A stretch of 64,000 nt of DNA from a virus, in IMG/VR virus record IMGVR_UViG_3300045988_176028; one strand, 5' to 3'. Positions 841-61,188 of the stretch are shown piece after piece. Within the stretch, counting starts at the first letter, position 1. Each line of letters opens with the position of its first letter. The notes beneath the pieces are model-generated. The model ran no database searches, was not told where the DNA came from, and saw only the letters and a list, made by a program, of their open reading frames with translations. The translations under genes and the position numbers were made by a program.

Positions 841-859
841 TGTGAACAATCCCACTATA
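841..859 (-). promoter_or_regulatory. conserved promoter/leader box copy
   Basis: Coding-strand text is tatagtgggattgttcaca, preceded by TGT (extended -10). Lies upstream of the start at 804. Confidence 0.6.
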
Positions 860-893
860 ACACAAGGGGGGTAGAAAAACGCAACACGAAAAC

Positions 894-1349
894 CTAAGCC
901 AGCGTTCGATTAAAAAAGAACTCCCTCTTCCCACCTCGATACAAACCCACACGCGAGCCAGACAAACGAAAACCAAAACGACGGAAGAAACCCTCATACA
1001 CCGGCAACAGTTCCTCCGGCACCGTCACCAGAGGAAACTGCTCGCACAGCAAACCCAACGCATATTCGACCAGAGCGGAACCGACTCCTCGATTCCGAAA
1101 GCCCTCGTAAACGCATAAAGTGCAAATCTTCCGTTCCGATGAAGTTCTCTTGAGAACGCAAAACCCCGCCAACCCATCATCCGTGCGGGCTAAAAGAATC
1201 GCACGGTCTTTCCCCAAGGAGGGGAGAACCGTGCGGTCGAACCACGTATCAAAGCCGGGATAATACGTTCGGATTATCTCCGGAATAGGAATAGAAGCCG
1301 CAGTTTCAGCATCCCGAACTACGTCAATCCTCAACGAAACTGAACACAT
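894..1349 (-). CDS. GNAT-family N-acetyltransferase
   Basis: 151-aa ORF with an acetyl-CoA motif A-like segment, FRNRGVGSALVEYAL (R-x-x-G-x-G/A). Size is typical of GNAT proteins. Confidence 0.7.
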   Translation of the reverse strand: MCSVSLRIDVVRDAETAASIPIPEIIRTYYPGFDTWFDRTVLPSLGKDRAILLARTDDGLAGFCVLKRTSSERKICTLCVYEGFRNRGVGSALVEYALGLLCEQFPLVTVPEELLPVYEGFFRRFGFRLSGSRVGLYRGGKREFFFNRTLA

Positions 1350-1569
1350 GAAAATCCGTCACACACTCGACATTGACATGAGTCGTATCATCCGGCCAAA
1401 CATATAAAACCGGCATATAGCCGGACAGTTCTCGAACGGCGAGATTGCTAAAACCGTCCAAGTAGAGGGTTCCGGCCATGGGTTTGCCGTTCCAGTTGAA
1501 AATTGCGGGCTTGCCTTCGAGTTCCTTCCAGTTAATTCCGTCTTGGTAGGGGAGTTCTTTTAAGGTCAT
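1324..1569 (-). CDS. hypothetical protein, 81 aa
   Basis: Complete ATG ORF with GGAAAACCA before the ATG. Overlaps the downstream GNAT start by 26 nt. Confidence 0.5.
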   Translation of the reverse strand: MTLKELPYQDGINWKELEGKPAIFNWNGKPMAGTLYLDGFSNLAVRELSGYMPVLYVWPDDTTHVNVECVTDFHVFSFVED

Positions 1570-1586
1570 TGGTTTTCCTTCTTTGG

Positions 1587-1605
1587 TGTGGACTATCTCA
1601 CTCTA
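1587..1605 (-). promoter_or_regulatory. degenerate copy of the promoter/leader box
   Basis: Coding-strand text is tagagtgagatagtccaca. It keeps the GTCCACA end and the position upstream of the start at 1569, but the -10 hexamer is poor. Confidence 0.3.
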
Positions 1606-1650
1606 ACACAACCGGAGTGGCGTGAAGAAGAAAAATCCCCCTCCCCACAT

Positions 1651-1866
1651 TCAGAATTCCGGCTCCTCGACATTCAGCAACACCAGTTTCGGACGGCGGC
1701 GCAGAATCCTGCAATCCTCTGCCCACGCGTCCAAAATTTCGCAAGCCAATACGGGTGCTTCCGGAGCCAGAGTAGGCATGGTGTTCAGAATCGACTGGAC
1801 GGAGTCTAAGTCTGCGAAGGGAAGTTCTGTCGCATTATTGGCTGCATCCAAAAAATAGTGGGGCAT
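1651..1866 (-). CDS. hypothetical protein, 71 aa
   Basis: Track ORF 1651..1926 trimmed to the ATG at 1866 (MPHYF...), which is preceded by GGAAGGAG. Confidence 0.45.
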   Translation of the reverse strand: MPHYFLDAANNATELPFADLDSVQSILNTMPTLAPEAPVLACEILDAWAEDCRILRRRPKLVLLNVEEPEF

Positions 1867-1869
1867 TCG

Positions 1870-1913
1870 TGCTCCTTCCAAAAATTGAAAAGAAAAAGCC
1901 TGTGGGTAACGAT
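1870..1913 (-). terminator. rho-independent terminator candidate
   Basis: Stem gcctgtgg (1887..1894) pairs with ccacaggc (1906..1913). It is followed on the minus strand by TTTTTCTTTTCAATTTTT. Confidence 0.5.
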
Positions 1914-2017
1914 TTTCCACAGGCATTCTTGGCTTATTATTCGATTTCGCGAGGCTTCAGAACTTTGTCTGAAACACCAGCGCAATCGCGCTCAATAATA
2001 GACTTTTTTACCGACTT

Positions 2018-2182
2018 TTATTCGTCGCACAAGTCGGTGTTGCGTCTGCCATATTTGTTTCGTTTCTTGGCTTGCGGATTCCAAGCGCTACCTGCATCCC
2101 ATTCGATGTGAGTGGAACGGTTTTCCCTGTGAGTGTTGTTCTTGTTGGCATTGCCGGTGTTAATCCAGTCGTGGTTGCTCAT
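2018..2182 (-). CDS. small basic ORF, 54 aa (not in the ORF track)
   Basis: Hand translation gives MSNHDWINTGNANKNNTHRENRSTHIEWDAGSAWNPQAKKRNKYGRRNTDLCDE. It starts 12 nt after the stop of 2195..2569. RBS is weak. Confidence 0.3.
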   Translation of the reverse strand: MSNHDWINTGNANKNNTHRENRSTHIEWDAGSAWNPQAKKRNKYGRRNTDLCDE

Positions 2183-2194
2183 TTTTTTCTACTT

Positions 2195-2569
2195 TCAGTA
2201 GCAGTCATCGCACCAACCGGTGTCCCCGCACGGATTCTCGTTTTCGTCGGTTAGCAGACAACCGCAACCGATGCAATACATGTTGTCCGGATTGTCGGAC
2301 GAAGCGAAAAAACCTTCCCCGACAATGTTACCAGCCAAGTCGGTGATGGTGTAGATTGCCCGAGTATCGGCTTCCGGTGCGGGATAGCCGGACATGCCTA
2401 GAATCCTGTTGTACACGTTCGTCAGTAGAGTGCGAACGTTTCCCGCCTGACGAGTCCCATTCACAATGGGAGCCGTCAAATGGTCGAAGAATCCTACCGT
2501 CGTATCCCAAGAATGCTGACCTTCGTGGATTTCAATTTCCAGCTTTTCCCTACCGTCGGTGAATCGCAT
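2195..2569 (-). CDS. hypothetical protein with Cys-rich C-terminus, 124 aa
   Basis: Complete ATG ORF. C-terminal CIGCGC...CGDTGWCDDCY suggests a small metal-binding knuckle. Starts 10 nt after the stop of 2580..2942. Confidence 0.55.
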   Translation of the reverse strand: MRFTDGREKLEIEIHEGQHSWDTTVGFFDHLTAPIVNGTRQAGNVRTLLTNVYNRILGMSGYPAPEADTRAIYTITDLAGNIVGEGFFASSDNPDNMYCIGCGCLLTDENENPCGDTGWCDDCY

Positions 2570-2579
2570 TTTCGTTTTC

Positions 2580-2942
2580 CTACAATTCCCTCATGGCCTT
2601 GTCTAAATCGGACACAATCGCGTCATACAGTCCGTCAACGTTCAACGATTCCAGCTTGTGCGACGGCAAATCCACGGGAGCGTATTCCCCGTCGTCGAAA
2701 GTCCAATGCTCGACCGAAACCGTGTATACTCCTCCACTCCAACGGTAGGAACGTCTGCCGTTATGTTGCGAGTCTGCCACAAGATAGTATTCGAACATCT
2801 TGCCCATGTATGGGCATTGGAATGCGACTTCGATTCCGTCTCCGAAGATGGCGTGGGTGGCGTGTGCGCCGGTCACGTATGGGATTTTGACGAGCTTGTC
2901 AATGAGTTTCCGGTAGGTGTCTTCGCTGATTTTCGAGTACAT
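2580..2942 (-). CDS. hypothetical protein, 120 aa
   Basis: Track ORF 2580..2969 trimmed to the ATG at 2942 (MYSKISEDTYRK), downstream of the box at 2981..2999. Confidence 0.55.
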   Translation of the reverse strand: MYSKISEDTYRKLIDKLVKIPYVTGAHATHAIFGDGIEVAFQCPYMGKMFEYYLVADSQHNGRRSYRWSGGVYTVSVEHWTFDDGEYAPVDLPSHKLESLNVDGLYDAIVSDLDKAMREL

Positions 2943-2980
2943 TCTTTTTCCTTTTTCTGTATGGGTCAAACCCTTGTTTG

Positions 2981-2999
2981 TGTGGACGGTTCCAGTATA
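2981..2999 (-). promoter_or_regulatory. conserved promoter/leader box copy
   Basis: Coding-strand text is tatactggaaccgtccaca, preceded by TGA (TGn extended -10). Confidence 0.6.
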
Positions 3000-3138
3000 T
3001 CATACAAATGACGACATCCCCAAAAAACAGCACACGCCCTACTTGACCTCAGCCTTCAATGTTTGTTGGAAGATACTTTGCGACGGGGCCAGTCGAAGGA
3101 CGGCTCCCCTTGACTGACCCGTGAGGTGCCGGATGGTT

Positions 3139-3993
3139 TCAGCCGTGCAACGCGGTGATGATTTCGTCAGCGGCCTTACGGACATGCTCGGCGGTGGAAC
3201 GTACAAGCTTGGGGTCGGCATCGCTCCACCCCGCCACGTAGCGGATGGAATACTCGCCGGTGTCCATTCCCATGTATTTGGCCACCACGTACGCGACGCT
3301 TTCCGCCTCGGTCTCATAGATGCCGCGATGCCGACCGTATTCACCTTCCGGCAACCCCTGATGGAGAAGCATGTGGGCCGTTTCATGCAGGATGGTCTTG
3401 GCGTCCTGCCTCGGGCTGTTCTGCTCGTTGAGCATGATTCGTCTGCTTCCATCCATCGTGGTGTAGCCTTTGACGTCCCTTCCCATCGACTCATGCCCCA
3501 CTCGCCAATGTTTGGATTCGAGCCAAGCGGTCATGCGTCCGACGAGTCCGAGCGCGTCTGCGCCTTCAAGCTCGGACGGCTTCATCTGTTCGATGGGGTC
3601 GGTCTCCTTGTCGATGGGGTCGGTCTGGGATACGTCGAACACCGTCAAGATGGGATACCAGACTTTTTGGATAGGGTCGCCGTTCTCGTCTAACTGTGGG
3701 TTGCCGTCTTCGTCCTTGACGGTTCTGGTGCTGAAGCCGAAGATTTTCATGCCGTGTTCGCCTTTGCGCACGACGCGCCCGCGTGTCTGCCATTGGCGGA
3801 ATCCGGCGACCAGCGATGAGTTGCCGTTCGATTGCATGAGCATTAGCAGGATGTTGTTCCAGCTATATTGGTGGAAACGTCCCATGAAATCGAGGTAGCG
3901 CTGCCAAGTGCCGGAGTTTCGCAGCTCCTTCACGCCGGTTTCGATGTCCTTGCGCAGTTCTTCGATTCGTTCCCCGTGTTGTTTGCTTGCCAT
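3139..3993 (-). CDS. ardC: ArdC-like antirestriction protein (ssDNA-binding N-domain plus HExxH metalloprotease domain)
   Basis: N-terminal ArdC/DUF1738-type motifs (YSWNNILLMLMQ, FRQWQTRGRVVRKGEHGMKIFGF). C-terminal zinc motif ILHETAHMLLH. 284 aa is typical of the family. Confidence 0.8.
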   Translation of the reverse strand: MASKQHGERIEELRKDIETGVKELRNSGTWQRYLDFMGRFHQYSWNNILLMLMQSNGNSSLVAGFRQWQTRGRVVRKGEHGMKIFGFSTRTVKDEDGNPQLDENGDPIQKVWYPILTVFDVSQTDPIDKETDPIEQMKPSELEGADALGLVGRMTAWLESKHWRVGHESMGRDVKGYTTMDGSRRIMLNEQNSPRQDAKTILHETAHMLLHQGLPEGEYGRHRGIYETEAESVAYVVAKYMGMDTGEYSIRYVAGWSDADPKLVRSTAEHVRKAADEIITALHG

Positions 3994-4036
3994 TTCGTTG
4001 TTCCTTTTCGGTCACGTACGGGAGGTGTCAGCGCGG

Positions 4037-4297
4037 TCAGCAGCAGTATTCGTTGACTGCGTTGACGAGTTCAGCCATGCTCATGCCGTACACGTCGCTG
4101 TGGCGGGGGTAGATGTCTTTTGCGAAGAGTCTGTTTTGCATGATAGTGCGGGCTTCGGGACTTTGAACGAGTTTCACGCTTTCGGGGAAGGTGCTTGAGA
4201 GGGCGTTGTCGTTGATTTGTTTGGCGTATTCGGCTGCTTGTTTTTTGGGCATTTTCTTGACGTTGATTGCGCCGCCGATGTAGTGGATTGCGTACAT
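4037..4297 (-). CDS. hypothetical protein, 86 aa
   Basis: Track ORF 4037..4354 trimmed to the ATG at 4297 (MYAIHYIGG), preceded by AAAAGGAG. The removed N-terminus is just the translated promoter box. Confidence 0.55.
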   Translation of the reverse strand: MYAIHYIGGAINVKKMPKKQAAEYAKQINDNALSSTFPESVKLVQSPEARTIMQNRLFAKDIYPRHSDVYGMSMAELVNAVNEYCC

Positions 4298-4329
4298 GTT
4301 ATGTGCTCCTTTTTGCCTATCGCTCTTTA

Positions 4330-4348
4330 TGTGAACAATTCCACTATA
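4330..4348 (-). promoter_or_regulatory. conserved promoter/leader box copy
   Basis: Coding-strand text is tatagtggaattgttcaca, preceded by TGC. Upstream of the 4297 start; ardC follows with no box of its own. Confidence 0.6.
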
Positions 4349-4430
4349 GCACACTTGAGTGAAACCTCAAAACCCCAAAAAAACAAAAGCGGGACACCAA
4401 AACAGCATCCCGCCTTCCCTCCGTCAAACC

Positions 4431-5397
4431 TTAATCAGACAAACCGGCACGGGCACGCATCTTGCGTTTAATCTCGCTACCCTTGGCGAACAGGCGCTCC
4501 ATACGGGCCACGGTCTGCAACGCCTTCTTATACTCCTCCAATCGAGAAGAGATTTGCCAATTACGAGGTTCCGCCAACGACTCCTCAATCAGAGAATCGG
4601 GAACATCCCACATAAAGGACATAATCCAACGGCGGTTTTCCCCGCCCATGCGACGCCACAAGCGCACGGCACGCTTACCTTTGACCCATTCCGGATTATT
4701 AAACAAGACTTGGATGGCGGATTCGTCGGAGAGGGAGTCCAGCAATGGGTCTATGTCCGTTTCTTCCGCCAACGGTGCTGATAGGATGCGGATGGTTTCA
4801 TCATCGCTTTTCACCCAATGCTCGAAGCAGAGCCTATCGGCCAGCTTGTTTTCCACCATGTAGCGGATAACGTCGTAATCCGTTTCCTCCCAGTACAGGC
4901 TTGCAACGGTATGCTTTGCGGCGAGCTTGCGTAGTTCGGGGTCTTTGTCCTTAGCGAGGCTGGTCGCGGTCTTGTAGTTGAGTTTTCCCCTTGTATTCCA
5001 AATATTCGGCCACTTTGCGGCGAACGTCCCGACTCCGGTCTTTCAACACGGTTTCGCGTAATCCGTCGTATACGTTTCCGTCCTTGACTTCCATGTTGTA
5101 TTCCAGTTTGCAGTTGACGTAGTAGTGGCGGAACGGTAGGGGGAGAGGGAATATTCTTCCACTCTGGTAGATGTTCTTAATGCTTTCCAGCAGGTCGATT
5201 CCCTTGTTGGTAAGCTTCCAACGGTCGCGTTCCTTGTTTAGTTCGATTAGGTTGGCTTCCTTGAATTTATCTAAGGGCTTCTGGTCGATGTATGCGCTCA
5301 GTCGTTGTGAATGGGTTTCATTGTCGAAGTCTTCGAAGCAGTAAACGAGGTTGGCAGTCCACTTTTTGGTAAGACTGTTGATTGCGTCGTTGTCCAT
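4431..5397 (-). pseudogene. frameshifted paralog of the 6312..7235 repeat protein
   Basis: ORF 4951..5397 (...RRKVAEYLEYKGK) and the frame containing ORF 4431..4859 join to align colinearly with 6312..7235. The frames switch at an A4 run on the coding strand (plus tttt, 4983..4986). Confidence 0.6.
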
Positions 5398-5422
5398 GGT
5401 TTCTCCTTCTCGGCATATCTTG

Positions 5423-5441
5423 TGTGAACAATTCCAGTATA
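5423..5441 (-). promoter_or_regulatory. conserved promoter/leader box copy
   Basis: Coding-strand text is tatactggaattgttcaca. Upstream of the ATG at 5397 (RBS GAGAAGGAG). Confidence 0.6.
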
Positions 5442-5557
5442 GCCTAAGTTGAGATAAAACACAACACGCAACCAAGCCAAAACGAAGACGCAATCCCCGC
5501 CCATACGAAAAAAAGGAATACGCCCACATGATTTTCCTGCGGGCGTATTCCCATGTT

Positions 5558-5866
5558 TTAGTTCAGAAGTCCGGAGCGATACAGAATCCTGCGGATATTG
5601 ATACTGTGGACGAAAGCGGTGTCAGGCTGTCCAACGAAGTCGGCAAGCTGCTCGTCGGAGCACGTCTCGTCAACGGCGGCATCCAAAAACACCTCAGTCG
5701 GAGAGTCGAACATCCTACAGCCGACGCCAGCATGACCCTCGATGTGCTCAAACAAGGCGAAGTAGGTCATGTTCTCGTCCGCAACGCGCAACATGACATA
5801 GGAGGCATTGCCGTTGTGGAAGATGTTGTAGTCCTCTGCTCCGAATCGTGCGAAATACTCGTTCAT
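5558..5866 (-). CDS. hypothetical protein, 102 aa (paralog of 11231..11572)
   Basis: Trimmed to the ATG at 5866 (MNEYFARFGAEDYNIF...). Shares GAEDYNIF, LFEH[IV]EG and IRR[IL]L blocks with 11231..11572. Confidence 0.6.
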   Translation of the reverse strand: MNEYFARFGAEDYNIFHNGNASYVMLRVADENMTYFALFEHIEGHAGVGCRMFDSPTEVFLDAAVDETCSDEQLADFVGQPDTAFVHSINIRRILYRSGLLN

Positions 5867-5889
5867 TGTGGCTCTTTCTCTCATATTTG

Positions 5890-5908
5890 TGTGAACAATT
5901 CCAGTATA
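5890..5908 (-). promoter_or_regulatory. conserved promoter/leader box copy
   Basis: Coding-strand text is tatactggaattgttcaca, preceded by TGA. Confidence 0.6.
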
Positions 5909-6003
5909 TCATATTTAAGAGAAAGCGCAAAAGCGCAAAAAAACAAAAAGCCGTGCAAATACAAAAAGCATTCACACGACTCGGAAATTTTTACCACTAT
6001 TAG

Positions 6004-6300
6004 TTAGTCAAAGTCCGACGGTTCACCATTGACGTAGTTCAAAAACTGGTCGAAGGCATATTGCGCGGTATCCTCATAACGGCATGGCTTCGGCTGTGCG
6101 TTCTTTTCCCGCTCTTTCTGCTCTATTAACTGGTCTATTTGGCTTTGCTCATTGCGGTGTTGCCACGCGAGAGGCTCGTTGCCTTGGGCTAGGTTCTCAT
6201 ACACCGTGTATTCGTGCCCACGATAGCTGTAGACAAGATAGACCATATGTGCGTCATATCCGTGCCCGTAGTATTTCCTAATGAATGTCGCTTTTCGCAT
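6004..6300 (-). CDS. hypothetical protein, 98 aa
   Basis: Track ORF trimmed to the ATG at 6300 (MRKATFIRKYYGHGYD). Starts 12 nt after the stop of 6312..7235. Confidence 0.5.
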   Translation of the reverse strand: MRKATFIRKYYGHGYDAHMVYLVYSYRGHEYTVYENLAQGNEPLAWQHRNEQSQIDQLIEQKEREKNAQPKPCRYEDTAQYAFDQFLNYVNGEPSDFD

Positions 6301-6311
6301 TGCTGCCCCTT

Positions 6312-7235: not shown

Positions 7236-7261
7236 TTCTGCTCCTTTTGGTTTCCTGTTTG

Positions 7262-7280
7262 TGTGAACAGTTCCAGTATA
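7262..7280 (-). promoter_or_regulatory. conserved promoter/leader box copy
   Basis: Coding-strand text is tatactggaactgttcaca. Upstream of the ATG at 7235. Confidence 0.6.
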
Positions 7281-7299
7281 GTACAGAATAGAGAAATGC

Positions 7300-8393: not shown

Positions 8394-8425
8394 GTAATTC
8401 TTCCTTTCTTTTTTGCCAAATATGA

Positions 8426-8463
8426 GAGAAGTAGAAGGAAGGAGTAATACGGCAGTCTTCCAA
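8426..8463 (-). repeat. 38-nt repeat family, copy A
   Basis: Coding-strand text is ttggaagactgccgtattactccttccttctacttctc. 35/38 identical to copy B at 33890..33927. Confidence 0.75.
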
Positions 8464-8481
8464 TTCCAATCTTGGTGTGGG

Positions 8482-8821: not shown

Positions 8822-8840
8822 TGTGGACATTTCCAGTATA
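8822..8840 (-). promoter_or_regulatory. conserved promoter/leader box copy
   Basis: Coding-strand text is tatactggaaatgtccaca, preceded by TGC. Confidence 0.6.
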
Positions 8841-9159: not shown

Positions 9160-9178
9160 TGTGAACAATTCCAGTATA
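9160..9178 (-). promoter_or_regulatory. conserved promoter/leader box copy
   Basis: Coding-strand text is tatactggaattgttcaca. Confidence 0.6.
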
Positions 9179-9630: not shown

Positions 9631-9643
9631 TTTCCCGTTCCTC

Positions 9644-10170: not shown

Positions 10171-10189
10171 TGTGAACAATCCCAGTATA
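10171..10189 (-). promoter_or_regulatory. conserved promoter/leader box copy
   Basis: Coding-strand text is tatactgggattgttcaca, preceded by TGG. Confidence 0.6.
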
Positions 10190-11107: not shown

Positions 11108-11126
11108 TGTAAACAATTCCAGTATA
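11108..11126 (-). promoter_or_regulatory. conserved promoter/leader box copy
   Basis: Coding-strand text is tatactggaattgtttaca. Confidence 0.55.
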
Positions 11127-11604: not shown

Positions 11605-11623
11605 TGTGAACGATTCCAGTATA
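11605..11623 (-). promoter_or_regulatory. conserved promoter/leader box copy
   Basis: Coding-strand text is tatactggaatcgttcaca. Confidence 0.6.
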
Positions 11624-32221: not shown

Positions 32222-32240
32222 TATACTGGAATCGTCCACA
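32222..32240 (+). promoter_or_regulatory. conserved promoter/leader box copy
   Basis: Text is tatactggaatcgtccaca, preceded by TGT. Sits in the divergent intergenic region upstream of the ATG at 32292. Confidence 0.6.
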
Positions 32241-54988: not shown

Positions 54989-55007
54989 TATACTAGAAGC
55001 GTTCACA
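54989..55007 (+). promoter_or_regulatory. conserved promoter/leader box copy
   Basis: Text is tatactagaagcgttcaca, preceded by TGT. Confidence 0.55.
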
Positions 55008-55040
55008 CAATAACAGAAAAAGCCAGCCAAGGAGAAAAAC

Positions 55041-55412: not shown

Positions 55413-55457
55413 GAAAGAATTTTTCCTGCAACCTTCCTTGTTTGCGAAAAACTACGT

Positions 55458-55476
55458 TATAGTGGAACCAGTCACA
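55458..55476 (+). promoter_or_regulatory. conserved promoter/leader box copy
   Basis: Text is tatagtggaaccagtcaca. Confidence 0.5.
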
Positions 55477-55494
55477 AACAAGGAAGGTTCCTTT

Positions 55495-55827
55495 TTGAAC
55501 ACCGAAACGGACATCACGGACAGTCAAACCCAAGAACGTTCCCGTCCGCGCAAAGACCTTGACACCGTAGGAGGGTTCCTTGACTCCTGCAAGGACGAGA
55601 CGCCAATCCTGCTTTACTTCAACACAAACGACGGAATACAAAGAATCCCCCACATCCTAGGAGACCCGCCCACCGTCGGACAACTCCGACTCAACAAATA
55701 TCTGCGGCCACTGAAAATCCAACGAAGAGTCCGCTACCAGATTGCCGGAACCAGCGACACCGGCTGGGTCATCCGGGTCGATGAACGATTCAAGAAAAAG
55801 AAATACGTCAAAGCGTCGAAAGCCTGA
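55495..55827 (+). CDS. hypothetical protein, ~110 aa (TTG start)
   Basis: Track ORF 55438..55827 contains the box. AAGGAAGG lies 7 nt before the TTG at 55495. Confidence 0.45.
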   Translation: MNTETDITDSQTQERSRPRKDLDTVGGFLDSCKDETPILLYFNTNDGIQRIPHILGDPPTVGQLRLNKYLRPLKIQRRVRYQIAGTSDTGWVIRVDERFKKKKYVKASKA

Positions 55828-56581
55828 ATACTTGGAATATCAGAACAACACCGTGAACAAAAACTGCCTATACTCCAACGGAGACCGGGAAGCAGTCTTG
55901 CAGACCATCTTCCGTAGGGGAGTCCTCCCACAGGTCGTGGTGTACGCGCTCGGACTACTGGTGGCGGTATGGCTTCTCGCATATTCGAACTCCCTGACGG
56001 GAGGATGGAAAATCATCTTCCTGTTCCTGTCCATCCTGAACTTCGTGTCCGGAATCCGAGGACTCGTCAAGGTAAGCGCCAGCTGGACAACGCTCCGTGA
56101 CTGCGCGTATCCGAACATCGACGCGAACGCGGCTGAAACATGGGATTTGGCAGTATGGCTCGCCAACAGTCCGCAATTCGGAGGAACCCCAATCCGGGAT
56201 ATGCGACAGCAGGAACTACGTGAGGCATTGGATGAGTACGGGCCACTGTTCCAAGCGAACAATCTCGAAGACGTGACCATCCAACTGAACCGGTTGGAAC
56301 GGCTCATGCACGAAGTGGATTGGACAGGCCAATACGTTCATGCTCTCCTTCTATTCCGACAGTTGAAAGACTCGCATCTCAAATATTGGAGCCAACTGGA
56401 CGGAGCCTACCGTCAAACGTTAATAAAACTGACGTCAGGCATGCGTTTGGAAAACCTACGCGAAGACGTGCAACTCTCCCCACACCGCATGGTCATCTTG
56501 GACGGATTGCAGATTAACTGCGGACTGCACGGTACCGCAGGAAAGTACACCGTCGGCTATGAGGACGGCGGTGTACTGTGA
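55742..56581 (+). CDS. membrane protein, up to 279 aa (start uncertain)
   Basis: Two TM helices (VVVYALGLLVAVWLLAY, IIFLFLSILNFVSGI). Candidate starts are 55742, 55781, 55853 and the TTG at 55898 (after GGGAAG). Confidence 0.5.
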   Translation: MPEPATPAGSSGSMNDSRKRNTSKRRKPEYLEYQNNTVNKNCLYSNGDREAVLQTIFRRGVLPQVVVYALGLLVAVWLLAYSNSLTGGWKIIFLFLSILNFVSGIRGLVKVSASWTTLRDCAYPNIDANAAETWDLAVWLANSPQFGGTPIRDMRQQELREALDEYGPLFQANNLEDVTIQLNRLERLMHEVDWTGQYVHALLLFRQLKDSHLKYWSQLDGAYRQTLIKLTSGMRLENLREDVQLSPHRMVILDGLQINCGLHGTAGKYTVGYEDGGVL

Positions 56582-56895
56582 ACTATCAGATGCTACGGGA
56601 CGCTCGTAGTGGACGAATCCACATGTTCTCCGACAATTGCTGGATGCTCCGGGACTGGGTGGCGAAAAACATCGGGCTGGAAGAGAACGGCGTAGCACTC
56701 ATACGCAGACTCGACCTGTTGGAAATGGAAAAATACTCCACCAAAATGATGGACAATCCCGAATCGTCCAGCGAGGAATACTGGCAAGCGAAAACCATGC
56801 ATGACGGCGTGGTCAGAACCTTCAAAGAACTATCGCCGGTGGCGCTACTCGAATACTGGGACTGTCTGAACGACACTCCCGTCAACATCCTCTGA
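56578..56895 (+). CDS. hypothetical protein, 105 aa
   Basis: The GTG start overlaps the previous stop (GTGA). Confidence 0.5.
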   Translation: MNYQMLRDARSGRIHMFSDNCWMLRDWVAKNIGLEENGVALIRRLDLLEMEKYSTKMMDNPESSSEEYWQAKTMHDGVVRTFKELSPVALLEYWDCLNDTPVNIL

Positions 56896-56932
56896 GCTTA
56901 GAAAAACCCCAAAACCTCTGAAAGGAGCAGCA

Positions 56933-57376
56933 TTGGACGAAGAATCCTCCACCCAACGTTTCCGTGTCCTCATGGCCGGTATCAGCGAAGGTGAGACCAG
57001 AATCCTCTACAACATCGAAAATGGAAGGTTGACCGCCGACATTCTCAAAAGCAACATCGGCAGACGACTGCTGGATGCCGGACTCATCCGACGTAACGGG
57101 CAATCAGCCCCGTCCCTCACCAAGGATGGCATGCGCCTCGTATCCACGCTCGCCCAAGGCGAGGCAGACCGTCCAATCCGACTATACGAGCGCAACAGCG
57201 AAACGCTGCTCCGCCAAGCCGGACAGGGAACGGCCAACGCATACAAGACCGGTTTCGAAAACGCCGCCGTCGAACTGTTGACCGACCGGCTTGTCCGACT
57301 TGACATCGCCTCCGGAACCCTCACCCTGCTTCCTGCGGGAACGGAACTCCTGTCCAAGCTCGACAAGGCGGCTTGA
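56933..57376 (+). CDS. hypothetical protein, 147 aa (possible winged-helix)
   Basis: TTG start 5 nt after AAAGGAG. Confidence 0.5.
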   Translation: MDEESSTQRFRVLMAGISEGETRILYNIENGRLTADILKSNIGRRLLDAGLIRRNGQSAPSLTKDGMRLVSTLAQGEADRPIRLYERNSETLLRQAGQGTANAYKTGFENAAVELLTDRLVRLDIASGTLTLLPAGTELLSKLDKAA

Positions 57377-57377
57377 C

Positions 57378-57581
57378 ATGCTGGGCTGGCTGACTCAACA
57401 GAACGTGCTTGTGGCGATTGCTATTGGAGCCATCATCCTACTGCTCATGTTCCTCATCCCCGCCGTCGAGGAACTGGTCGGCACGTATACTCCGTTGGGA
57501 GAATTCTGCGAAAGGCCGAACATGAGATGGGCTGTGGTCATCCTGACCATCGTAGCGGTTCTCACGGTAGTGGTCATCTGA
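57378..57581 (+). CDS. small two-TM membrane protein, 67 aa
   Basis: ATG at 57378 (MLGWLTQQNVLVAIAIGAIILLLMFLIP...WAVVILTIVAVLTVVVI). Confidence 0.5.
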   Translation: MLGWLTQQNVLVAIAIGAIILLLMFLIPAVEELVGTYTPLGEFCERPNMRWAVVILTIVAVLTVVVI

Positions 57582-57595
57582 CTTTTTCCCTTGAC

Positions 57596-57623
57596 GGGGA
57601 CGGCTTGATGCCGTCCCTTTTTT
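57596..57623 (+). terminator. rho-independent terminator
   Basis: Stem ggggacggc pairs with gccgtccc, followed by tttttt. Confidence 0.7.
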
Positions 57624-57696
57624 GTTTCCCGCATCAAGTATGGGACAGTGTTCCAGCCGACTAATCTAGGAAAGGAAAGACTCGAAAGGTGGAAAC

Positions 57697-57981
57697 GTGA
57701 AAGGCTTCCTAAAGAACCTATTGGCTTTGACCGGGCTGGCGTCCATCATCACCATGCTCGGCTCCCTCGCATATGTGGATAAGAAACTACATGATGTGGG
57801 CAACGAATACAAGTACGGCCCCGCACGGCATCTGGAGTATTTGAGCGCGCTGTTGCACTCCTTCAACCGTTCTATAGATGTTATTGCCGCCGACACGCAT
57901 CGGAAGGTGTGCGATGAGGAGAATCGGAAGTATGACCGTTTGGAGGATGAGCGGGAGAGGGCTTGGAGCGCGGCCCGCTGA
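57697..57981 (+). CDS. membrane-anchored hypothetical protein, 94 aa
   Basis: GTG start after AAAGGTGGA. N-terminal hydrophobic helix. Confidence 0.5.
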   Translation: MKGFLKNLLALTGLASIITMLGSLAYVDKKLHDVGNEYKYGPARHLEYLSALLHSFNRSIDVIAADTHRKVCDEENRKYDRLEDERERAWSAAR

Positions 57982-58011
57982 GTATTTGGTTTTCTTTGCG
58001 TCTGTCTATGT

Positions 58012-58030
58012 TATAGTGGAACTGTTCACA
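58012..58030 (+). promoter_or_regulatory. conserved promoter/leader box copy
   Basis: Text is tatagtggaactgttcaca, preceded by TGT. Confidence 0.6.
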
Positions 58031-58053
58031 TAAAACAGATTCGAAGGAAGACT

Positions 58054-58311
58054 ATGAACCAAAAAGTCCTCATCACTCTCAACAACGGAGCGAAACGTAT
58101 CGTATACCGTGACGACCTCTGCCACGAGCTGGCCGACCTGCTCCGGCTCTACCTGCACGCCGACGCGTTGCCGGGAACAGGGGAACGTTGGGAACTGTTG
58201 AGGACGCTTGCATCCACTCTCATTGGTCGCGCTATCGAAAAAGGGCTTTTTGAGGACTGCGCCCGCGTGAACGTGTATCCGGTTTCTTTCCAAATGGTTC
58301 GGCCTGATTGA
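58054..58311 (+). CDS. hypothetical protein, 85 aa
   Basis: Complete ATG ORF, RBS GAAGGAAG. Confidence 0.55.
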   Translation: MNQKVLITLNNGAKRIVYRDDLCHELADLLRLYLHADALPGTGERWELLRTLASTLIGRAIEKGLFEDCARVNVYPVSFQMVRPD

Positions 58312-58330
58312 CATATTCAACAAACTGAGT

Positions 58331-58349
58331 TACAGTGGAACTGTTCACA
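58331..58349 (+). promoter_or_regulatory. conserved promoter/leader box copy
   Basis: Text is tacagtggaactgttcaca. Confidence 0.55.
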
Positions 58350-58375
58350 CATATAGACCCAAAGGAGAAAACCAA

Positions 58376-58639
58376 ATGACCGTCAACGAACTCATCGAAC
58401 AATTAAAGAACCTACCCAAGGAAGTACGCGAACGCCCCATCATGGACGGCAATCCGAACAATGAATACTGGTTGGCCGACCTCCGCGCGATTTCAGTCGC
58501 CAAGGTCGTTGTATCCGGCGATGGCGCTTGTAACATGTACGACCCGGTACTTTCCGACGAGGAAAACATCGAAGAACTGGAAGACAGATACGACATGTCA
58601 ATGCATGTCGAACATCGGGCATTGGCATTCTTCAATTGA
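58376..58639 (+). CDS. hypothetical protein, 87 aa
   Basis: Complete ATG ORF, RBS AAAGGAG. Confidence 0.55.
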   Translation: MTVNELIEQLKNLPKEVRERPIMDGNPNNEYWLADLRAISVAKVVVSGDGACNMYDPVLSDEENIEELEDRYDMSMHVEHRALAFFN

Positions 58640-58655
58640 GATAGGGGTCGTACAA

Positions 58656-59105
58656 ATGGACGCGAACACTCCCATTAACATTCCCATCCGTCTTGAACAG
58701 TGGATACATGACAACTACATGGAAGTCGAAACCATTATCATCGATGCCCGGACAATCCTAGACGCAACCGATTTCGATAATCTTCCCGAATGGGAGGATT
58801 GGGATACGGACTTCATCGCGGAGGACGCTCAAAGAATTGGGCTGCTGAAAATGTGGTCTGGGCCATTCACCGTCGAACTATTCAACTGTGACGAGTATCC
58901 CGACTATCTCGAATGGCGCAAAACTCATAAGACCGTCGAAGGTGCCGCAGAACACATTCTCGACTTGAGCAAGAAGGAACTACTGTGGCAAATCGAAGAA
59001 ACCAAGAAGCAACTAGACAAGTATGTTAGCCAATATGAGGCGTTAAGCGGGGAGAATCCGCGTCAAACTTCTAGAACGGCACTGGTTGGCAGACCACTCG
59101 TCTAA
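58656..59105 (+). CDS. acidic hypothetical protein, 149 aa
   Basis: Internal ATG at 58656 (MDANTPINIPIRLEQW). Asp/Glu/Trp-rich (DFDNLPEWEDWDTDFIAED). Confidence 0.5.
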   Translation: MDANTPINIPIRLEQWIHDNYMEVETIIIDARTILDATDFDNLPEWEDWDTDFIAEDAQRIGLLKMWSGPFTVELFNCDEYPDYLEWRKTHKTVEGAAEHILDLSKKELLWQIEETKKQLDKYVSQYEALSGENPRQTSRTALVGRPLV

Positions 59106-59131
59106 CATCCGAGAGAAAAGAAGAAAACCAA

Positions 59132-59500
59132 ATGGTATGCAAAAATACCCCGGACAACTGGGCTACCCGCCGAGTCCTCGCAATCTCATACAGTCCGGAC
59201 GGCAGATATAAGGAAACACTATTCGAGCGTGAAGAAGATGGAAACTATTATGCGGGCTGTGGAAGATTCTACGCCAGCGATATCGAGGATAGAACCAAGT
59301 TCTATCCGATTCCGGACGACGAGAAACTATCTCGCTGGGTGTTGAAGGATGGAACGGTAATCACTTCGTCCGAGAATAGTGACATCCTTAACCCGGAGGC
59401 CATGCGTGTTATGACTTTCGACGGCACTCGTATCGTAATCCCAGCCGAACAGCTTAACTACGTGCAGGACATGTGTGAGGATACCAATGCAGAATACTGA
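59132..59500 (+). CDS. hypothetical protein, 122 aa
   Basis: Complete ATG ORF. Confidence 0.5.
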   Translation: MVCKNTPDNWATRRVLAISYSPDGRYKETLFEREEDGNYYAGCGRFYASDIEDRTKFYPIPDDEKLSRWVLKDGTVITSSENSDILNPEAMRVMTFDGTRIVIPAEQLNYVQDMCEDTNAEY

Positions 59501-59846
59501 ACAAAACCGTTGGATATTACTGGATATGGCTCGTGCCATGGGTGGCTACGGCTACGACGAGATGTGGTGGGCTGACGTTTTTGAGCCGGACGAATTGGAG
59601 TATTCCGCTCCCGACTTGTATGAGAAGTTCGTCAACTCGTCCGACTACGACCCTGCTGCTCATTGGTTCCGTCGTAAGGAATACGGTGTCGGTTTCGAGT
59701 CGGTCACGGACGAGAGCCTGTTGGCGGATGCTTGGCATATGCGGGATGATATTGTCGAATTGGCTTCTCGTAGGGATGTGTGGCTGAATATTCCGGATAT
59801 CGATTTTGTTTCGCGTATTCGGAAGCTTGGGGTTGTGGTTTCTTAG
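59487..59846 (+). CDS. hypothetical protein, 119 aa
   Basis: ATG at 59487 (MQNTEQNRW), 5 nt after GAGGA. Overlaps the previous gene by 14 nt. Confidence 0.5.
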   Translation: MQNTEQNRWILLDMARAMGGYGYDEMWWADVFEPDELEYSAPDLYEKFVNSSDYDPAAHWFRRKEYGVGFESVTDESLLADAWHMRDDIVELASRRDVWLNIPDIDFVSRIRKLGVVVS

Positions 59847-59871
59847 GATTGTCTCTCTGAAAATTCCATGC

Positions 59872-59890
59872 TATACTGGAAACGTTCACA
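59872..59890 (+). promoter_or_regulatory. conserved promoter/leader box copy
   Basis: Text is tatactggaaacgttcaca, preceded by TGC. Confidence 0.6.
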
Positions 59891-59917
59891 AAAAAGTTTT
59901 CGGAAAGAGCAAGAAAA

Positions 59918-60117
59918 ATGAGCGACATCAAGACGCCTGTCACCCCAATAGACGAGGAACGGGTCAAAAAAACTGGTACCCTCGCTACTCGCATTCAGAC
60001 ATGAACGACAATATTCGCCTCCGCTTGAACAAGGCGATTGAAACCACCGATTCTGAGGAATTCGTGGACATTGCCTACAAGCTGGGACTGTTCCTTACGG
60101 AAGGGGAAGACGATTGA
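59918..60117 (+). CDS. two coupled micro-ORFs (28 aa, 59918..60004; 38 aa, 60001..60117), or one gene split at an A7 run
   Basis: MSDIKTPVTPIDEERVKKTGTLATRIQT stop, then an ATGA overlap into MNDNIRLRLNKAIETTDSEEFVDIAYKLGLFLTEGEDD. An A7 run at 59967..59973 could equally hide a frameshift. Confidence 0.3.
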
Positions 60118-60662
60118 GCGTCGAAGAAACAGGAGTTTGGACGGAAACTTATCCAAAAGAACCTTGCCCATTCTGCGGAAAAACGGTTGCTATTCGAATC
60201 AGCGAGATTCTTATTGTGGACAAAAAATACTGGAAAGTCCGTATTTTCGACGATAGTGGTTGCCCGTTGTCCGCAATGTTCGAGCGGGGCTTGCGAATGG
60301 GGTCAGCGGGGGAAGTGTGTGCCGTTCTTAAAAAGGATTGGCATGAGATTGTGGAAACCGTTTCCACTATGCCGGTTTGTCCCGAATGTGGACGCTCCCC
60401 GGTTTGTCGTTATTCCACGAACCTCGACCGTTGGATTATCCTTTGCGAAAAAGGACATTTGAGAACGGATGAGGCTTTCGTTCTCTCTGCCATGAGGAAT
60501 TGGAACAAGAAAGTCGGTCAATATGTTTGCGACAATCAGAACCAACGACTCGGTCAATGTCTGATGGAGTTCTGGCATCAAGGGGATACGTCGGACGAGA
60601 ATCTTCCGGAATTCATGCGGCAAAGTTGGCGGATAAAACACGCCGATTGGGAGAGAAAGTGA
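60114..60662 (+). CDS. tandem Lar-like zinc-ribbon protein (restriction-alleviation family candidate), 182 aa
   Basis: Two modules: EPCPFCGKTV...YWKV...C and MPVCPECGRS...WIILC...AFVLSAMRNWNKK. They resemble the CPFCG...W-x-V-x-C...AWNRR pattern of Lar-family proteins (from memory). Confidence 0.5.
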   Translation: MSVEETGVWTETYPKEPCPFCGKTVAIRISEILIVDKKYWKVRIFDDSGCPLSAMFERGLRMGSAGEVCAVLKKDWHEIVETVSTMPVCPECGRSPVCRYSTNLDRWIILCEKGHLRTDEAFVLSAMRNWNKKVGQYVCDNQNQRLGQCLMEFWHQGDTSDENLPEFMRQSWRIKHADWERK

Positions 60663-61018
60663 ACGAAAACGTAAATTACCATCCGCTACGCCGTTGCGTC
60701 ATCTGCAACGAATCAGTGGAGGCCGACGACCCGACATGCGCGGTCTGCGGCCAACCGGCTTGCAGTAACCACGCTTACGACGTGGGTGGCGGCGAATGGT
60801 ATTGCGCCGACTGCCACCACGGAAAAACTCACCCGTGCGCGGACTGTGGTACGCCATCCCATTGGCGGTGCAAGGATTGCGGCAAATGGGTTTGCAAAAA
60901 CCATTCGACATTCGTCGCGGTTCAAGGTGAGGAATTCTATACTCTTTTCGGCTACTACTGCGATAATGATTTACGTTGGGAACTAGCGGAAGAACAAGCT
61001 AAGGAGGTGACGTTGTGA
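60659..61018 (+). CDS. Cys-rich zinc-finger protein, 119 aa
   Basis: The GTG start overlaps the previous stop. Four CxxC pairs (CVIC, CAVC, CADC, CADC/CKDC). Confidence 0.5.
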   Translation: MNENVNYHPLRRCVICNESVEADDPTCAVCGQPACSNHAYDVGGGEWYCADCHHGKTHPCADCGTPSHWRCKDCGKWVCKNHSTFVAVQGEEFYTLFGYYCDNDLRWELAEEQAKEVTL

Positions 61019-61076
61019 GCGAGAAAACCAGACGGGATAAGACGTTGAAGCTTATCGAGGACGGCGATGACGATGA

Positions 61077-61111
61077 TTGGAAGACTGCCGTATTTATACT
61101 TCCTTCTACTC
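61077..61111 (+). repeat. 38-nt repeat family, copy C
   Basis: Text is ttggaagactgccgtatttatacttccttctactc. Lies just upstream of the terminator at 61124. Confidence 0.65.
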
Positions 61112-61123
61112 GCTTGAGTTTTG

Positions 61124-61156
61124 GCCGCTCCTTTTCTGGGAGCGGCTTTTATTTTT
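61124..61156 (+). terminator. rho-independent terminator
   Basis: Stem gccgctcc pairs with ggagcggc, followed by ttttattttt. Confidence 0.7.
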
Positions 61157-61169
61157 CTCATCCAGATGT

Positions 61170-61188
61170 TATAGTGGAATTGTTCACA
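61170..61188 (+). promoter_or_regulatory. conserved promoter/leader box copy
   Basis: Text is tatagtggaattgttcaca, preceded by TGT. Confidence 0.6.

Follow-up and report, generated by a model that had tools for sequence, protein, structure and literature searches.

Promoter boxes with an invariant GTYCACA heptamer in a relative of the bifidobacterial megaplasmid pMP7017

A promoter-like box recurs in front of small genes in the window, the whole 64,000-nucleotide stretch of DNA analysed here. The motif TATASTGGAANNGTYCACA was found as 12 exact matches, against 0.00 expected from 100 shuffles, and as 19 matches when up to 3 mismatches were allowed (0.35 expected; shuffle maximum 2). The 18 copies with up to 2 mismatches lie exactly where a sequence-only reading of this DNA had placed its clear copies, 11 on the minus strand (841-11623) and 7 on the plus strand. 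The copies and the genes they are predicted to drive are as follows.

841..859, minus strand: box, 1 mismatch; drives ORF 433-804
1587..1605, minus strand: degenerate box, 3 mismatches; drives ORF 1324-1569, which has an orthologue in pMP7017
2981..2999, minus strand: exact box; drives ORF 2580-2942
4330..4348, minus strand: exact box; drives ORF 4037-4297 and the ArdC-N/M78 protein 3139-3993; terminator directly upstream; mosaic junction
5423..5441, minus strand: exact box; drives ORF 4951-5397
5890..5908, minus strand: exact box; drives ORF 5558-5866; terminator upstream
7262..7280, minus strand: exact box; drives ORF 6312-7235; mosaic junction on both sides
8822..8840, minus strand: exact box, ATGTCCACA variant; drives ORF 8482-8790; terminator upstream; mosaic junction
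9160..9178, minus strand: exact box; drives small membrane-like ORF 8919-9119
10171..10189, minus strand: box, 1 mismatch; drives ORF 9644-10138; strong terminator upstream; mosaic junction
11108..11126, minus strand: box, 1 mismatch; drives DUF2786/DUF7168 gene 10251-11075; orthologous to the pMP7017 copy at 28290
11605..11623, minus strand: exact box; drives ORF 11231-11572; divergent from AAA_16 ATPase gene 11739-12896
32222..32240, plus strand: exact box; heads the plus-strand block from 32292; orthologous to the pMP7017 copy at 56070
54989..55007, plus strand: box, 1 mismatch; drives ORF 55041-55412; orthologous to the pMP7017 copy at 35196
55458..55476, plus strand: box, 2 mismatches, AGTCACA; drives ORF 55495-55827; orthologous to the pMP7017 copy at 36118
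58012..58030, plus strand: exact box; drives ORF 58054-58311
58331..58349, plus strand: box, 1 mismatch, TACAGT; drives ORF 58376-58639
59872..59890, plus strand: exact box; 28-codon ORF 59918-60004 alone behind it; mosaic junction
61170..61188, plus strand: exact box; drives ORF 61211-61939
63030..63048, minus strand: degenerate copy cATACTGGGCGTATTCACA; points towards ImmR-like HTH gene 62423-62803

Every copy is followed in the same orientation by a Shine-Dalgarno (SD) sequence and start codon, as had been claimed, with 17-51 nt between motif end and start codon. Terminators lie directly upstream of many copies, and the boxes head insulated transcription units. TGn directly precedes the hexamer in 12 of the 19 window copies, in agreement with its reported presence in most of them, and all TGnTATAnT sites in the window (11/11) carry the box. 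The leaders behind the boxes are A-rich and unstructured; no structure was detected in the leader RNA (mean z -0.17) or in the single-stranded DNA (mean z -0.66). Of three degenerate copies proposed earlier, that at 1587 is genuine and that at 63030 is a plausible member of the family. The site at 49136, with 4 mismatches, could not be told from chance. The 'truncated' copy at about 51476 consists only of a TATACT hexamer with GTTC directly behind it and falls outside the family.

By its genes, the window is related to the B. breve megaplasmid pMP7017 but has diverged from it. Orthologues of 33 window genes occur on pMP7017 in syntenic order, with proteins only about 30-60% identical, and the window coupling protein is 59% identical to those of pMP7017 and the B. 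longum megaplasmids. A megablast search with the window element gave no match. On pMP7017 a 34-bp promoter-overlapping motif, present in 19 copies with a presumed regulon of 56 genes, has already been described (Dineen et al. 2024, Microb Biotechnol 17:e14405, PMC10832533). The motif was found via the most highly transcribed genes, highly transcribed units lie behind it in RNA-seq, and the published starts derive from RNA-seq coverage with manual refinement (PMC10832533). Its authors guessed at a transcription-factor site (PMC10832533); the shared operator or common 5′-leader of the sequence-only reading is the same guess. Our scan of pMP7017 detected TATACT-GAATAT-GTCCACA-TAAA in about 26 copies. 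The window boxes share with this motif the succession TATAsT, 6 nt, GTYCACA and (T/C)AAA in the same register, the class of copy number (19-20 in the 64-kb window), the position upstream of SD and start codon, and four promoter pairs at orthologous positions. They differ in carrying GGAAtt and GTTCACAc where pMP7017 has GAATAT and GTCCACAT, and in pMP7017 the whole 5′-UTR is conserved down to the SD, which is not so in the window. The window boxes are thus a new relative of an already known plasmid-wide control signal, and each copy quite possibly forms a promoter module complete in itself, on a bifidobacterial megaplasmid of the pMP7017 family. The motif does not represent a generic consensus of the host: in a genome_contigs scan of 185,579 species, one genome per species, multiple copies were present only on small contigs of one Bifidobacteriaceae MAG.

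To describe the anatomy of the box, a family logo was built from 147 non-redundant copies. It displays TRTGn before the TATAsT hexamer and a weak -35 TTG at 17 bp: positions -23/-22 are T in 63-65%, and 42% of the copies have TTG with a spacer of 16-18 bp. GG follows the hexamer in 92%, position 11 is Y in 90% and position 12 is G in 97%. The Y/G pair falls on the expected -1/+1, with a purine start 7 nt past the hexamer, and GTYCACA is 95-100% conserved. The same TRTGn-TATAsT, weak -35 TTG, 17 bp spacer and start distance characterize Gram-positive extended -10 ('-16 region') sigma-A promoters; ordinary sigma-A promoters, in contrast, have no invariant heptamer at +1 to +7 at a fixed distance in every copy. 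From the sequence and the published RNA-seq on pMP7017 (PMC10832533), the upstream half is a canonical, strong host sigma-A promoter (weak -35 TTG, TRTGn extended -10, TATAsT, GG discriminator), which bears out the earlier suggestion of an extended -10 promoter. The hexamer and GTYCACA are separated by 6 nt in 209 of 209 copies, and GTYCACA probably begins at +1. When a collection was seeded on TGnTATAnT alone, the exact heptamer stood at the fixed offset in 81 of 133 sites. TATAsT-G and GTYCACA are the sole parts common to the pMP7017, window-type, L114-type and MAG lineages. Discriminator and tail are uniform inside each lineage and different between lineages (GGAAnn in the window, GAATAT in pMP7017), the flanks drifting in concert; of the 13 nt earlier called invariant, GTYCACA is so, while the discriminator varies. 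The MAG lineage has lost the AAA tail, and its SD directly follows the heptamer. Common descent and gene conversion could account for part of the strict spacing and of the similarity between copies.

Within the promoter module, the heptamer is tentatively read as the binding site of a trans-acting protein, a reading held at slightly under even probability. Invariant and asymmetric, GTYCACA would be a fixed-position site for one sequence-specific DNA-binding protein. Since a protein seated on -2 to +7 must be expected to compete with RNA polymerase, it would throttle about 20 (window) to 28 (pMP7017) transcription units together, these being small accessory or establishment genes. Such joint throttling would parallel the global repressors of other conjugative plasmids, exemplified by KorA/KorB of IncP and the ArdK/KorA/StbA-type networks of IncN/IncW. 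There, too, one short operator recurs at many promoters, where it extends over core promoter elements, and genes for establishment and anti-restriction are among those covered; the putative regulon here includes ArdC-like and DUF2786 genes in the window and ssb in pMP7017. Those regulons, however, have palindromic operators, known plasmid-encoded repressors and promoters that are otherwise dissimilar, whereas the site in the window is asymmetric and the whole promoter is repeated. The box, asymmetric and single, is also unlike most dimeric repressor operators, which argues against the binding-protein reading, and invariance from the presumed +1 is just as compatible with a role for the 5′ end of the RNA. 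Any repression would be partial in growing plasmid-bearing cells, because the pMP7017 motif came from the most highly transcribed genes. The reader could be some plasmid protein, or host DnaA, a candidate because the box is a weak-to-medium DnaA-box look-alike. A Pfam scan of about 75 of the 80 window ORFs detected no sigma factor, DnaA domain IV or WhiB and a single ImmR-like HTH; this protein belongs to an ImmR/ImmA-like pair, the only one found, and its sole tie to the box is the degenerate copy upstream of its gene. The stoperators of cluster A mycobacteriophages, asymmetric sites of about 13 bp in 20-30 intergenic copies read by a monomeric repressor (L5 gp71), likewise belong to an actinobacterial mobile element and are oriented with transcription. 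They lie mostly away from promoters and block elongation, whereas in the window the heptamer without promoter is no commoner than chance (20 occurrences against about 16 by our own estimate).

That host DnaA is the reader seems unlikely on balance. The 9-mers bound by DnaA are asymmetric, which would account for the same property of the plasmid box, and a box overlapping the start site is a known mode of DnaA repression. The 9-mer that ends the motif, TTGTTCACA or TTGTCCACA in the window and ATGTCCACA in pMP7017, would be a DnaA box at -2 to +7, ending like DnaA boxes in YCACA. If DnaA reads it, either one in four plasmid genes is gated by the chromosomal replication initiator or DnaA is titrated by the plasmid. 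The positions invariant across lineages are DnaA-box positions 3-9, and the sole variable base in GTYCACA is position 5, which varies between species and among the retrieved oriC boxes (C, T or G). TTGTCCACA is the high-affinity box of Mycobacterium/Streptomyces, the corresponding boxes being TTATCCACA in E. coli/B. subtilis and TCATTCACA in H. pylori (PMC4285127, Table 1), and it is found with TTATTCACA among the predicted boxes of B. longum oriC (PMC2430713). DnaA is nowhere mentioned in the pMP7017 transcriptome paper (PMC10832533). Against a matrix of 16 boxes from a B. bifidum-type oriC, TTGTTCACA scores 10.65 bits, in the top 9e-5 of all 9-mers, but only 8 of 19 window copies score inside the range of oriC boxes. 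The same 16 bifidobacterial boxes have A at position 3 in 14 cases, where the plasmid box has G in 97%; variants such as ACATTCACA, in which this G deviates, do occur. The host oriC favours TTATCCACA (six times) over TTGTCCACA (once), and positions 1-2 of the plasmid box are weakly conserved, position 1 being T in the window and A in pMP7017. DnaA-regulated promoters usually carry clusters of boxes, whereas the plasmid promoters have a single one.

The conserved part might instead act after transcription, which we regard as improbable. The mRNAs of the regulon would begin 5′-GUYCACA(y)AAA, a common unstructured leader read by an RNA-binding protein, an RNase or a complementary small RNA, or aiding stability or translation. 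Invariance across lineages starts at the presumed +1 while the six bases upstream drift, the fixed spacing from the -10 hexamer would set an exact 5′ end, and the A-rich, unstructured leaders and the UTR conservation of pMP7017 are consistent with such a role. Neither a conserved structure nor a complementary RNA was identified, however; the sole anti-leader match of 13-15 nt, near 8873, sits in the T-rich tail of a terminator and seems to be fortuitous. Seven unstructured nucleotides make a short tag for an RNA to be recognized specifically, and the MAG lineage has given up the AAA tail.

The module also serves as a crossover point for the exchange of gene cassettes between related plasmids, because it is identical in front of unrelated genes. 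Homology breakpoints between these plasmids lie within 30 nt of a box centre in 13 of 54 cases, against 1.5 expected; when the null was restricted to intergenic positions, 8 of 25 fell within 15 nt, against 1.7 expected (p about 2e-4). In the alignments, homology switches inside the box. Comparable exchange points between otherwise unrelated sequences are the PeSL of T4-like phages. These small composites of terminator and early promoter occur in plastic regions, on either side of small ORFs whose function is not known (Arbiol et al. 2010, PMC2839356; Comeau et al. 2014, PMC4122927). The PeSL belong to lytic phages and the window boxes to a plasmid of a Gram-positive host, the sequences are unrelated, and no stem-loop is conserved within the window repeat.

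Cassette shuffling would be the main consequence if the box were simply a very good sigma-A promoter, with its discriminator and start-site context, copied ahead of genes as they arrived, with recombination and gene conversion keeping the copies alike. We give this explanation, which dispenses with a dedicated reader, a low probability. The coincidence of breakpoints with the box speaks for it, as do the alikeness of the whole UTR among pMP7017 copies, the concerted evolution of flanks inside lineages and the 25 nt that the L119 copies at 11269 and 11720 share upstream beyond the core. A GG discriminator and Y/G at -1/+1 are contacts of RNA polymerase in E. coli, and the module matches them. 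The bases at +3 to +7 (YCACA), on the other hand, are not known to be read by RNA polymerase, and they stay invariant across lineages whose proteins are only 30-60% identical, beside neighbours that drift, which indicates purifying selection on those bases themselves.

It is very improbable that the motif is the promoter of a plasmid-encoded sigma factor or RNA polymerase: although it resembles the conserved block of about 25 nt across the start site that is typical of phage-type RNA polymerase promoters, and several large window proteins have no Pfam match, its upstream half, with TRTGn and a TTG at the correct spacing, is a housekeeping promoter of the textbook kind, neither a sigma nor an RNA polymerase domain appears in the window Pfam scan or in the pMP7017 annotation, and the large proteins are orthologues of pMP7017 transfer-region genes, the 886-aa one being a type IV coupling protein homologue.

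Peptides recurring in ORF translations had been attributed to the box, and this holds: TAT ACT GGA ATT GTT CAC ACA is translated to YTGIVHT, and TAC TGG AAT TGT TCA CAC AAA to YWNCSHK.

The repetition of the promoter box in the window is real and lies far above chance. TATASTGGAANNGTYCACA was matched exactly 12 times, where shuffled sequences gave an expectation of 0, and 19 times when up to three mismatches were allowed (0.35 expected; shuffle maximum 2). The box coordinates listed in the sequence-only reading were reproduced by pattern search of the window, in two groups:

841-11623, minus strand: 12 box copies, made up of 11 with at most one mismatch and the copy at 1587.
32222, then 54989-61188, plus strand: 7 box copies, from the pattern search.

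Each copy was said to precede a Shine-Dalgarno sequence and start codon, and these were found downstream of every one, 17-51 nt past the motif end. TGn, noted directly 5' of the hexamer in most copies, is present in 12 of the 19. Among the additional copies proposed, 63030-63048 (minus strand) is a plausible degenerate member; the one at 49136 has four mismatches to the motif, and the supposedly truncated copy near 51476 consists of the TATACT hexamer only. That the recurring YTGIVHT/YWNCSHK peptides are translated box follows from the genetic code. A generic host promoter consensus had been named as a possible refutation. Across the genome_contigs collection, in which each of 185,579 species is represented by a single genome, the multi-copy motif was confined to the small contigs of one Bifidobacteriaceae MAG, and it was absent from two chromosomal loci, those of the AAA_16 homologues.

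Megablast against PLSDB/plasmid and phage collections gave no near-identical public record, and the kinship of the window to known plasmids was visible at the protein level only. Judged from its predicted proteins (sortase, SpaA-type pilin, a 1792-aa RCC1/SdrD adhesin, DnaB, RepA_C, ParA, a GmrSD-like nuclease and reverse transcriptase), the element is Gram-positive and plasmid-like; no tRNA or Rfam match was obtained in the window. An 886-aa protein shares 59% identity with the type IV coupling protein homologue of pMP7017, a Bifidobacterium breve megaplasmid, and of five B. longum megaplasmids. Orthologues in pMP7017 were found for 33 window genes (28-69% identity), with synteny between window 32-56 kb and pMP7017 56-35 kb. 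Contigs of 110-190 kb in IMG/VR match the window in mosaic blocks at 85-99% identity and carry the same motif many times; other fragments bearing the motif are also family members at the protein level. These contigs (L099-L156, from metagenome 3300045988), listed as viral, are relatives of this family of conjugative megaplasmids and not obvious phages. The AAA_16 (Orc1/DnaA-clade) ATPase at 11739-12896 is 87% identical to a Bifidobacterium panos chromosomal gene and has homologues across the genus (loci L161 and L162), the B. panos locus having 60.5% G+C against about 52% in the window. This kinship and the G+C gap hint at which clade the host belongs to, and suggest a plasmid lower in G+C than its host. 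Upstream of the RepA_C gene (50525-51394, minus strand) lie four direct 22-bp repeats, AAAGTGGGCACTTTCGACACGG, at 51604-51700, which are probably the iterons of the window repA. The repeats are unrelated to the promoter box, and Rep iterons were rejected as an explanation of it.

[quoted passage not shown] 2024, PMC10832533). It is present there in 19 copies, and 56 genes, making up 24% of the coding capacity, were predicted to form its regulon; it occurs in related plasmids and not in bifidobacterial chromosomes, highly transcribed units lie behind it in RNA-seq of pMP7017, and it was read as a likely transcription-factor binding site (PMC10832533). The paper makes no mention of DnaA, its supplement gives no start-site coordinates, and no paper naming a motif-binding factor was found in the later literature. 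Our scan of pMP7017 yielded about 26 copies in a register identical to that of the window motif, and four copies precede orthologous genes in the two replicons (window 11108, 32222, 54989 and 55458 correspond to pMP7017 28290, 56070, 35196 and 36118). The window motif thus shares with the pMP7017 type the fixed-distance arrangement of TATAsT, a GTCCACA-type box and an A-rich tail. It also shares the placing of many copies within 60 bp before start codons, with 19-20 copies in 64 kb here, and carriage by related megaplasmids ahead of comparable genes, as seen from the coupling protein, the syntenic orthologues and the four promoter pairs. The pMP7017-type motif is absent from bifidobacterial chromosomes, and the restriction to small contigs of a single MAG is in line with this. 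The window motif is another, diverged member of an already published motif family, not a novelty.

The genes driven by the box are small and nearly all without family matches; PHROGs gave no match for ten first genes of units. Family matches were obtained for two proteins:

3139-3993: ArdC-N/M78 protein, second gene in the unit behind the box at 4330.
10251-11075: DUF2786/DUF7168 protein, box-driven.

In pMP7017, ssb is immediately preceded by a motif copy, and further copies are found upstream of the operon containing a WhiB-family gene and inside the CRISPR-cas region. The box-driven genes have an establishment or accessory flavour, unlike the transfer, partition or replication core.

The anatomy of the promoter was derived from a family logo of 147 copies less than 85% identical over 124 nt. 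T at -23/-22 from the hexamer start represents a weak -35 TTG with a 17-bp spacer; TTG occurs at 16-18 bp spacing in 42% of the 147 copies, the -35 match is limited to these three bases, and a sigma-70 scan of window 1-12500 picked up two of its 12 copies. A T-rich spacer is followed by T-R-T-G-n, the Gram-positive '-16' element, and then by TATAsT. With G at -2 in 73%, T at -3 in 59% and T at -5 in 66% of the family, the window copies and their relatives show the defining feature of a sigma-A extended -10 promoter, TAnnnT with TGn or TRTGn directly upstream. GG follows the hexamer in 92% of the copies, then A, A and two weakly conserved bases; position 11 is a pyrimidine in 90%, and G-T-Y-C-A-C-A (95-100%) and a cAAA tail come next. 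Since the Y/G pair at positions 11/12 sits at the expected -1/+1, the transcripts probably begin with GUYCACA.

The heptamer is tied to the promoter. It is separated from the hexamer by 6 nt in all 209 copies from the window, pMP7017 and the IMG/VR loci; all 11 TGnTATAnT sites of the window carry the box, and among 133 sites seeded on TGnTATAnT only, 81 have the exact heptamer at the fixed offset. Heptamers lacking a promoter number 20 in the window against about 16 by chance, by our own estimate; the box is therefore unlike the stoperators of the L5 gp71 type, which are dispersed in transcribed regions independently of promoters. Many copies are immediately preceded by intrinsic terminators (at least 6 of the 12 in window 1-12500), making most units insulated single cassettes.

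TATAsT-G and GTYCACA are the sole parts common to the pMP7017, window-type, L114-type and MAG lineages, L114 being one of the IMG/VR contigs. The discriminator reads GGAAtt, GAATAT or GGGGAT according to lineage, and the tail is cAAA, TAAA, TAcagc or absent, the Shine-Dalgarno sequence then following directly. The flanks are uniform inside each lineage and different between lineages. The picture that emerges from this comparison is one of concerted evolution of the flanks and purifying selection on the heptamer. RNA polymerase contacts of the kind established in E. coli can explain the hexamer, the GG and the Y/G pair. Such contacts are not known to involve positions +3 to +7, and a reader of specific sequence, in DNA or RNA, is thereby implied. 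The reading with the best support is that of a modular sigma-A promoter carrying, at a fixed position on the start site, an asymmetric, putative binding box by which many small cassettes would be jointly controlled.

The box also doubles as a recombination joint between cassettes. Breakpoints of homology between the window and related elements fell within 30 nt of a box centre in 13 of 54 clusters (1.5 expected; maximum 7 in 2000 simulations), and under an intergenic-only null 8 of 25 lay within 15 nt of a box against 1.7 expected (p ~2e-4). In alignments at 4339, 7271, 8831 and 10180, relatives match either the upstream flank alone or the downstream gene alone, and the homology switch falls within the box. 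The same junction behaviour has been described for the PeSL promoter-terminator cassettes of T4-like phages (PMC2839356, PMC4122927). In these, a promoter and an adjacent terminator flank small ORFs, as seen here for the terminator-bearing copies, and the cassettes form junctions between unrelated sequences in related genomes, as the box does.

The candidates for the reader are a plasmid protein, the host DnaA or a factor acting at the RNA level. The 9-mer that ends the motif, TTGTTCACA or TTGTCCACA in the window and ATGTCCACA in pMP7017, resembles a DnaA box; TTGTTCACA is the commonest (33 of the 133 TGnTATAnT-seeded sites), and the other two also occur among these sites. High-affinity DnaA boxes are TTGTCCACA in Mycobacterium and Streptomyces, TTATCCACA in E. 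coli and B. subtilis and TCATTCACA in H. pylori (PMC4285127), and the predicted boxes of the B. longum oriC include TTGTCCACA and TTATTCACA (PMC2430713). Against this consensus, the box 9-mers have at most two mismatches to TTATCCACA or are identical to the actinobacterial TTGTCCACA. A B. bifidum-type oriC contig (L163) was obtained through the DnaA domain I sequence (PMC13270200 supplement), the proteins matching it and the contig encoding one of them. Its 16 DnaA boxes flank dnaA at 4741-5092 and 6673-7271; six are TTATCCACA, two TTATTCACA, and TTGTCCACA and TAGTCCACA occur once each, with A at position 3 in 14 of the 16. The dnaA gene of this contig was called as two ORFs (5093-5536 and 5482-6672), a possible assembly frameshift. 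By a matrix of these 16 boxes, TTGTTCACA reaches 10.65 bits and ranks among the highest 9e-5 of all 9-mers, yet it is level with the weakest origin boxes, and only 8 of the 19 window copies reach the score range of this one oriC. Positions 1-2 of the box are weakly conserved and lineage-dependent, which counts against a strong DnaA site. The presence of a single box per promoter counts against it too; clustering for cooperative DnaA binding was not observed, as no second box recurs at a set distance. It is possible that the box is a weak or medium DnaA box. We consider it rather unlikely that the heptamer is a deliberately sub-optimal DnaA box on the start of 20-28 strong promoters, coupling a quarter of the plasmid genes (anti-restriction, ssb, CRISPR-Cas, tRNA and accessory cassettes) to the host replication initiator, with the plasmid conversely a possible DnaA sink altering host replication timing.

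Plasmid-encoded proteins fare no better than DnaA as candidates. The sole HTH protein found in the window is ImmR-like (62423-62803, minus strand) and adjoins an ImmA-like HExxH peptidase (61936-62235, minus strand). A degenerate box lies upstream of the ImmR-like gene, and its pMP7017 orthologue likewise has a degenerate motif-like promoter. A global repressor of the KorA/KorB type would be a cognate plasmid DNA-binding regulator, and the search of the window found only the ImmR/ImmA-like pair. The KorA/KorB-type operator is also palindromic, whereas the box has only a 3-bp GAA/TTC symmetry that, in our reading of the consensus, is lost in pMP7017; a palindromic reading of the box was rejected on this ground.

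The divergently placed AAA_16 initiator-clade ATPase was rejected as a DnaA-like plasmid reader, its homologues being ordinary chromosomal genes in many Bifidobacterium species at loci without the motif. Sites of the CRP, LexA, PhoP and MtrA type do not fit in our reading, as half-site spacings differ and there is no second repeat unit. A structured RNA leader was dismissed, neither leader RNAs nor single-stranded DNA showing excess folding over shuffled controls; nor does the box fit an Frpo/ssi-like single-strand promoter, since those of plasmid leading regions rebuild a duplex promoter through a long hairpin and here the single-stranded DNA fold has a mean z of -0.66 and inverted repeats are not conserved. 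The scan of about 75 window ORFs and the pMP7017 annotation revealed no domain of a sigma factor or RNA polymerase, and guidance of the Cas3-less type I-E Cascade of pMP7017 to the 34-bp motif was rejected, the best of 25 spacers matching at most 16 of 35 positions.

Megaplasmids of the pMP7017 type are the sole conjugative plasmids to have been characterised in Bifidobacterium. In a survey of gut metagenomes from infants and mothers, they were reported for about 10% of the samples (PMC10832533). One 25-nt module appears to govern about a quarter of their genes, is kept in a lineage much more distant than pMP7017 with the constraint limited to TATAsT-G and GTYCACA, and serves as a joint for swapping cargo genes. 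The question now concerns a target of 7 bases and two candidates for its reader, a plasmid protein and host DnaA; the latter, if true, would tie plasmid gene expression to host replication control. For genetic work in bifidobacteria, the module also offers a strong promoter that is compact and portable.

Several further features were noted in the window and in pMP7017. A good plus-strand sigma-70-like promoter at 62842-62869 (TTGACA, 16 nt, TATTGT) is followed at 62880-62891 by GAACacttGTTC, a Cheo/LexA-type SOS box, in the divergent region by the ImmR-like and ImmA-like genes; this module may be SOS-controlled. RS00140, the ImmR-like orthologue of pMP7017 (L157), is preceded in its divergent region by a 17-bp perfect inverted repeat, GCGTGTTCCTCGTCGCA ... 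TGCGACGAGGAACACGC, at 24814-24880, and the RS00140 transcript is probably leaderless, as only 6 nt separate a TACAAT hexamer from its start codon. In the window, an inverted repeat with perfect 13-nt arms, CCAATTTTGTGAA / TTCACAAAATTGG, occupies 63023-63035 and 63158-63170, the arms being 122 nt apart; both arms contain the box tail TTCACAAAA, and one belongs to the degenerate promoter copy at 63030-63048. The parA start (49268) is preceded at a distance of 34 nt by a GTCCACA heptamer (49234-49240) that has no -10 hexamer at the canonical distance. The sole ORF downstream of the box promoter at 59872 has 28 codons, and a lone perfect TTGTCCACA lies at 60213-60221 (minus strand) inside a poorly coding stretch of about 59.9-61.1 kb, which may hold a non-coding RNA or a further cis element. 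At 17098-26190 (minus strand) there is a sortase-dependent pilus/adhesin cluster comprising a DUF6273 protein, the 1792-aa RCC1/SdrD-B adhesin, sortase and SpaA-type pilin, and analogous genes are present on pMP7017. The reverse transcriptase RVT_1 (14890-16119, minus strand) adjoins two ORFs without assigned function, 13005-14012 and 14009-14620, and together they may form a defence locus of the retron, Abi or DRT type (13005-16119).
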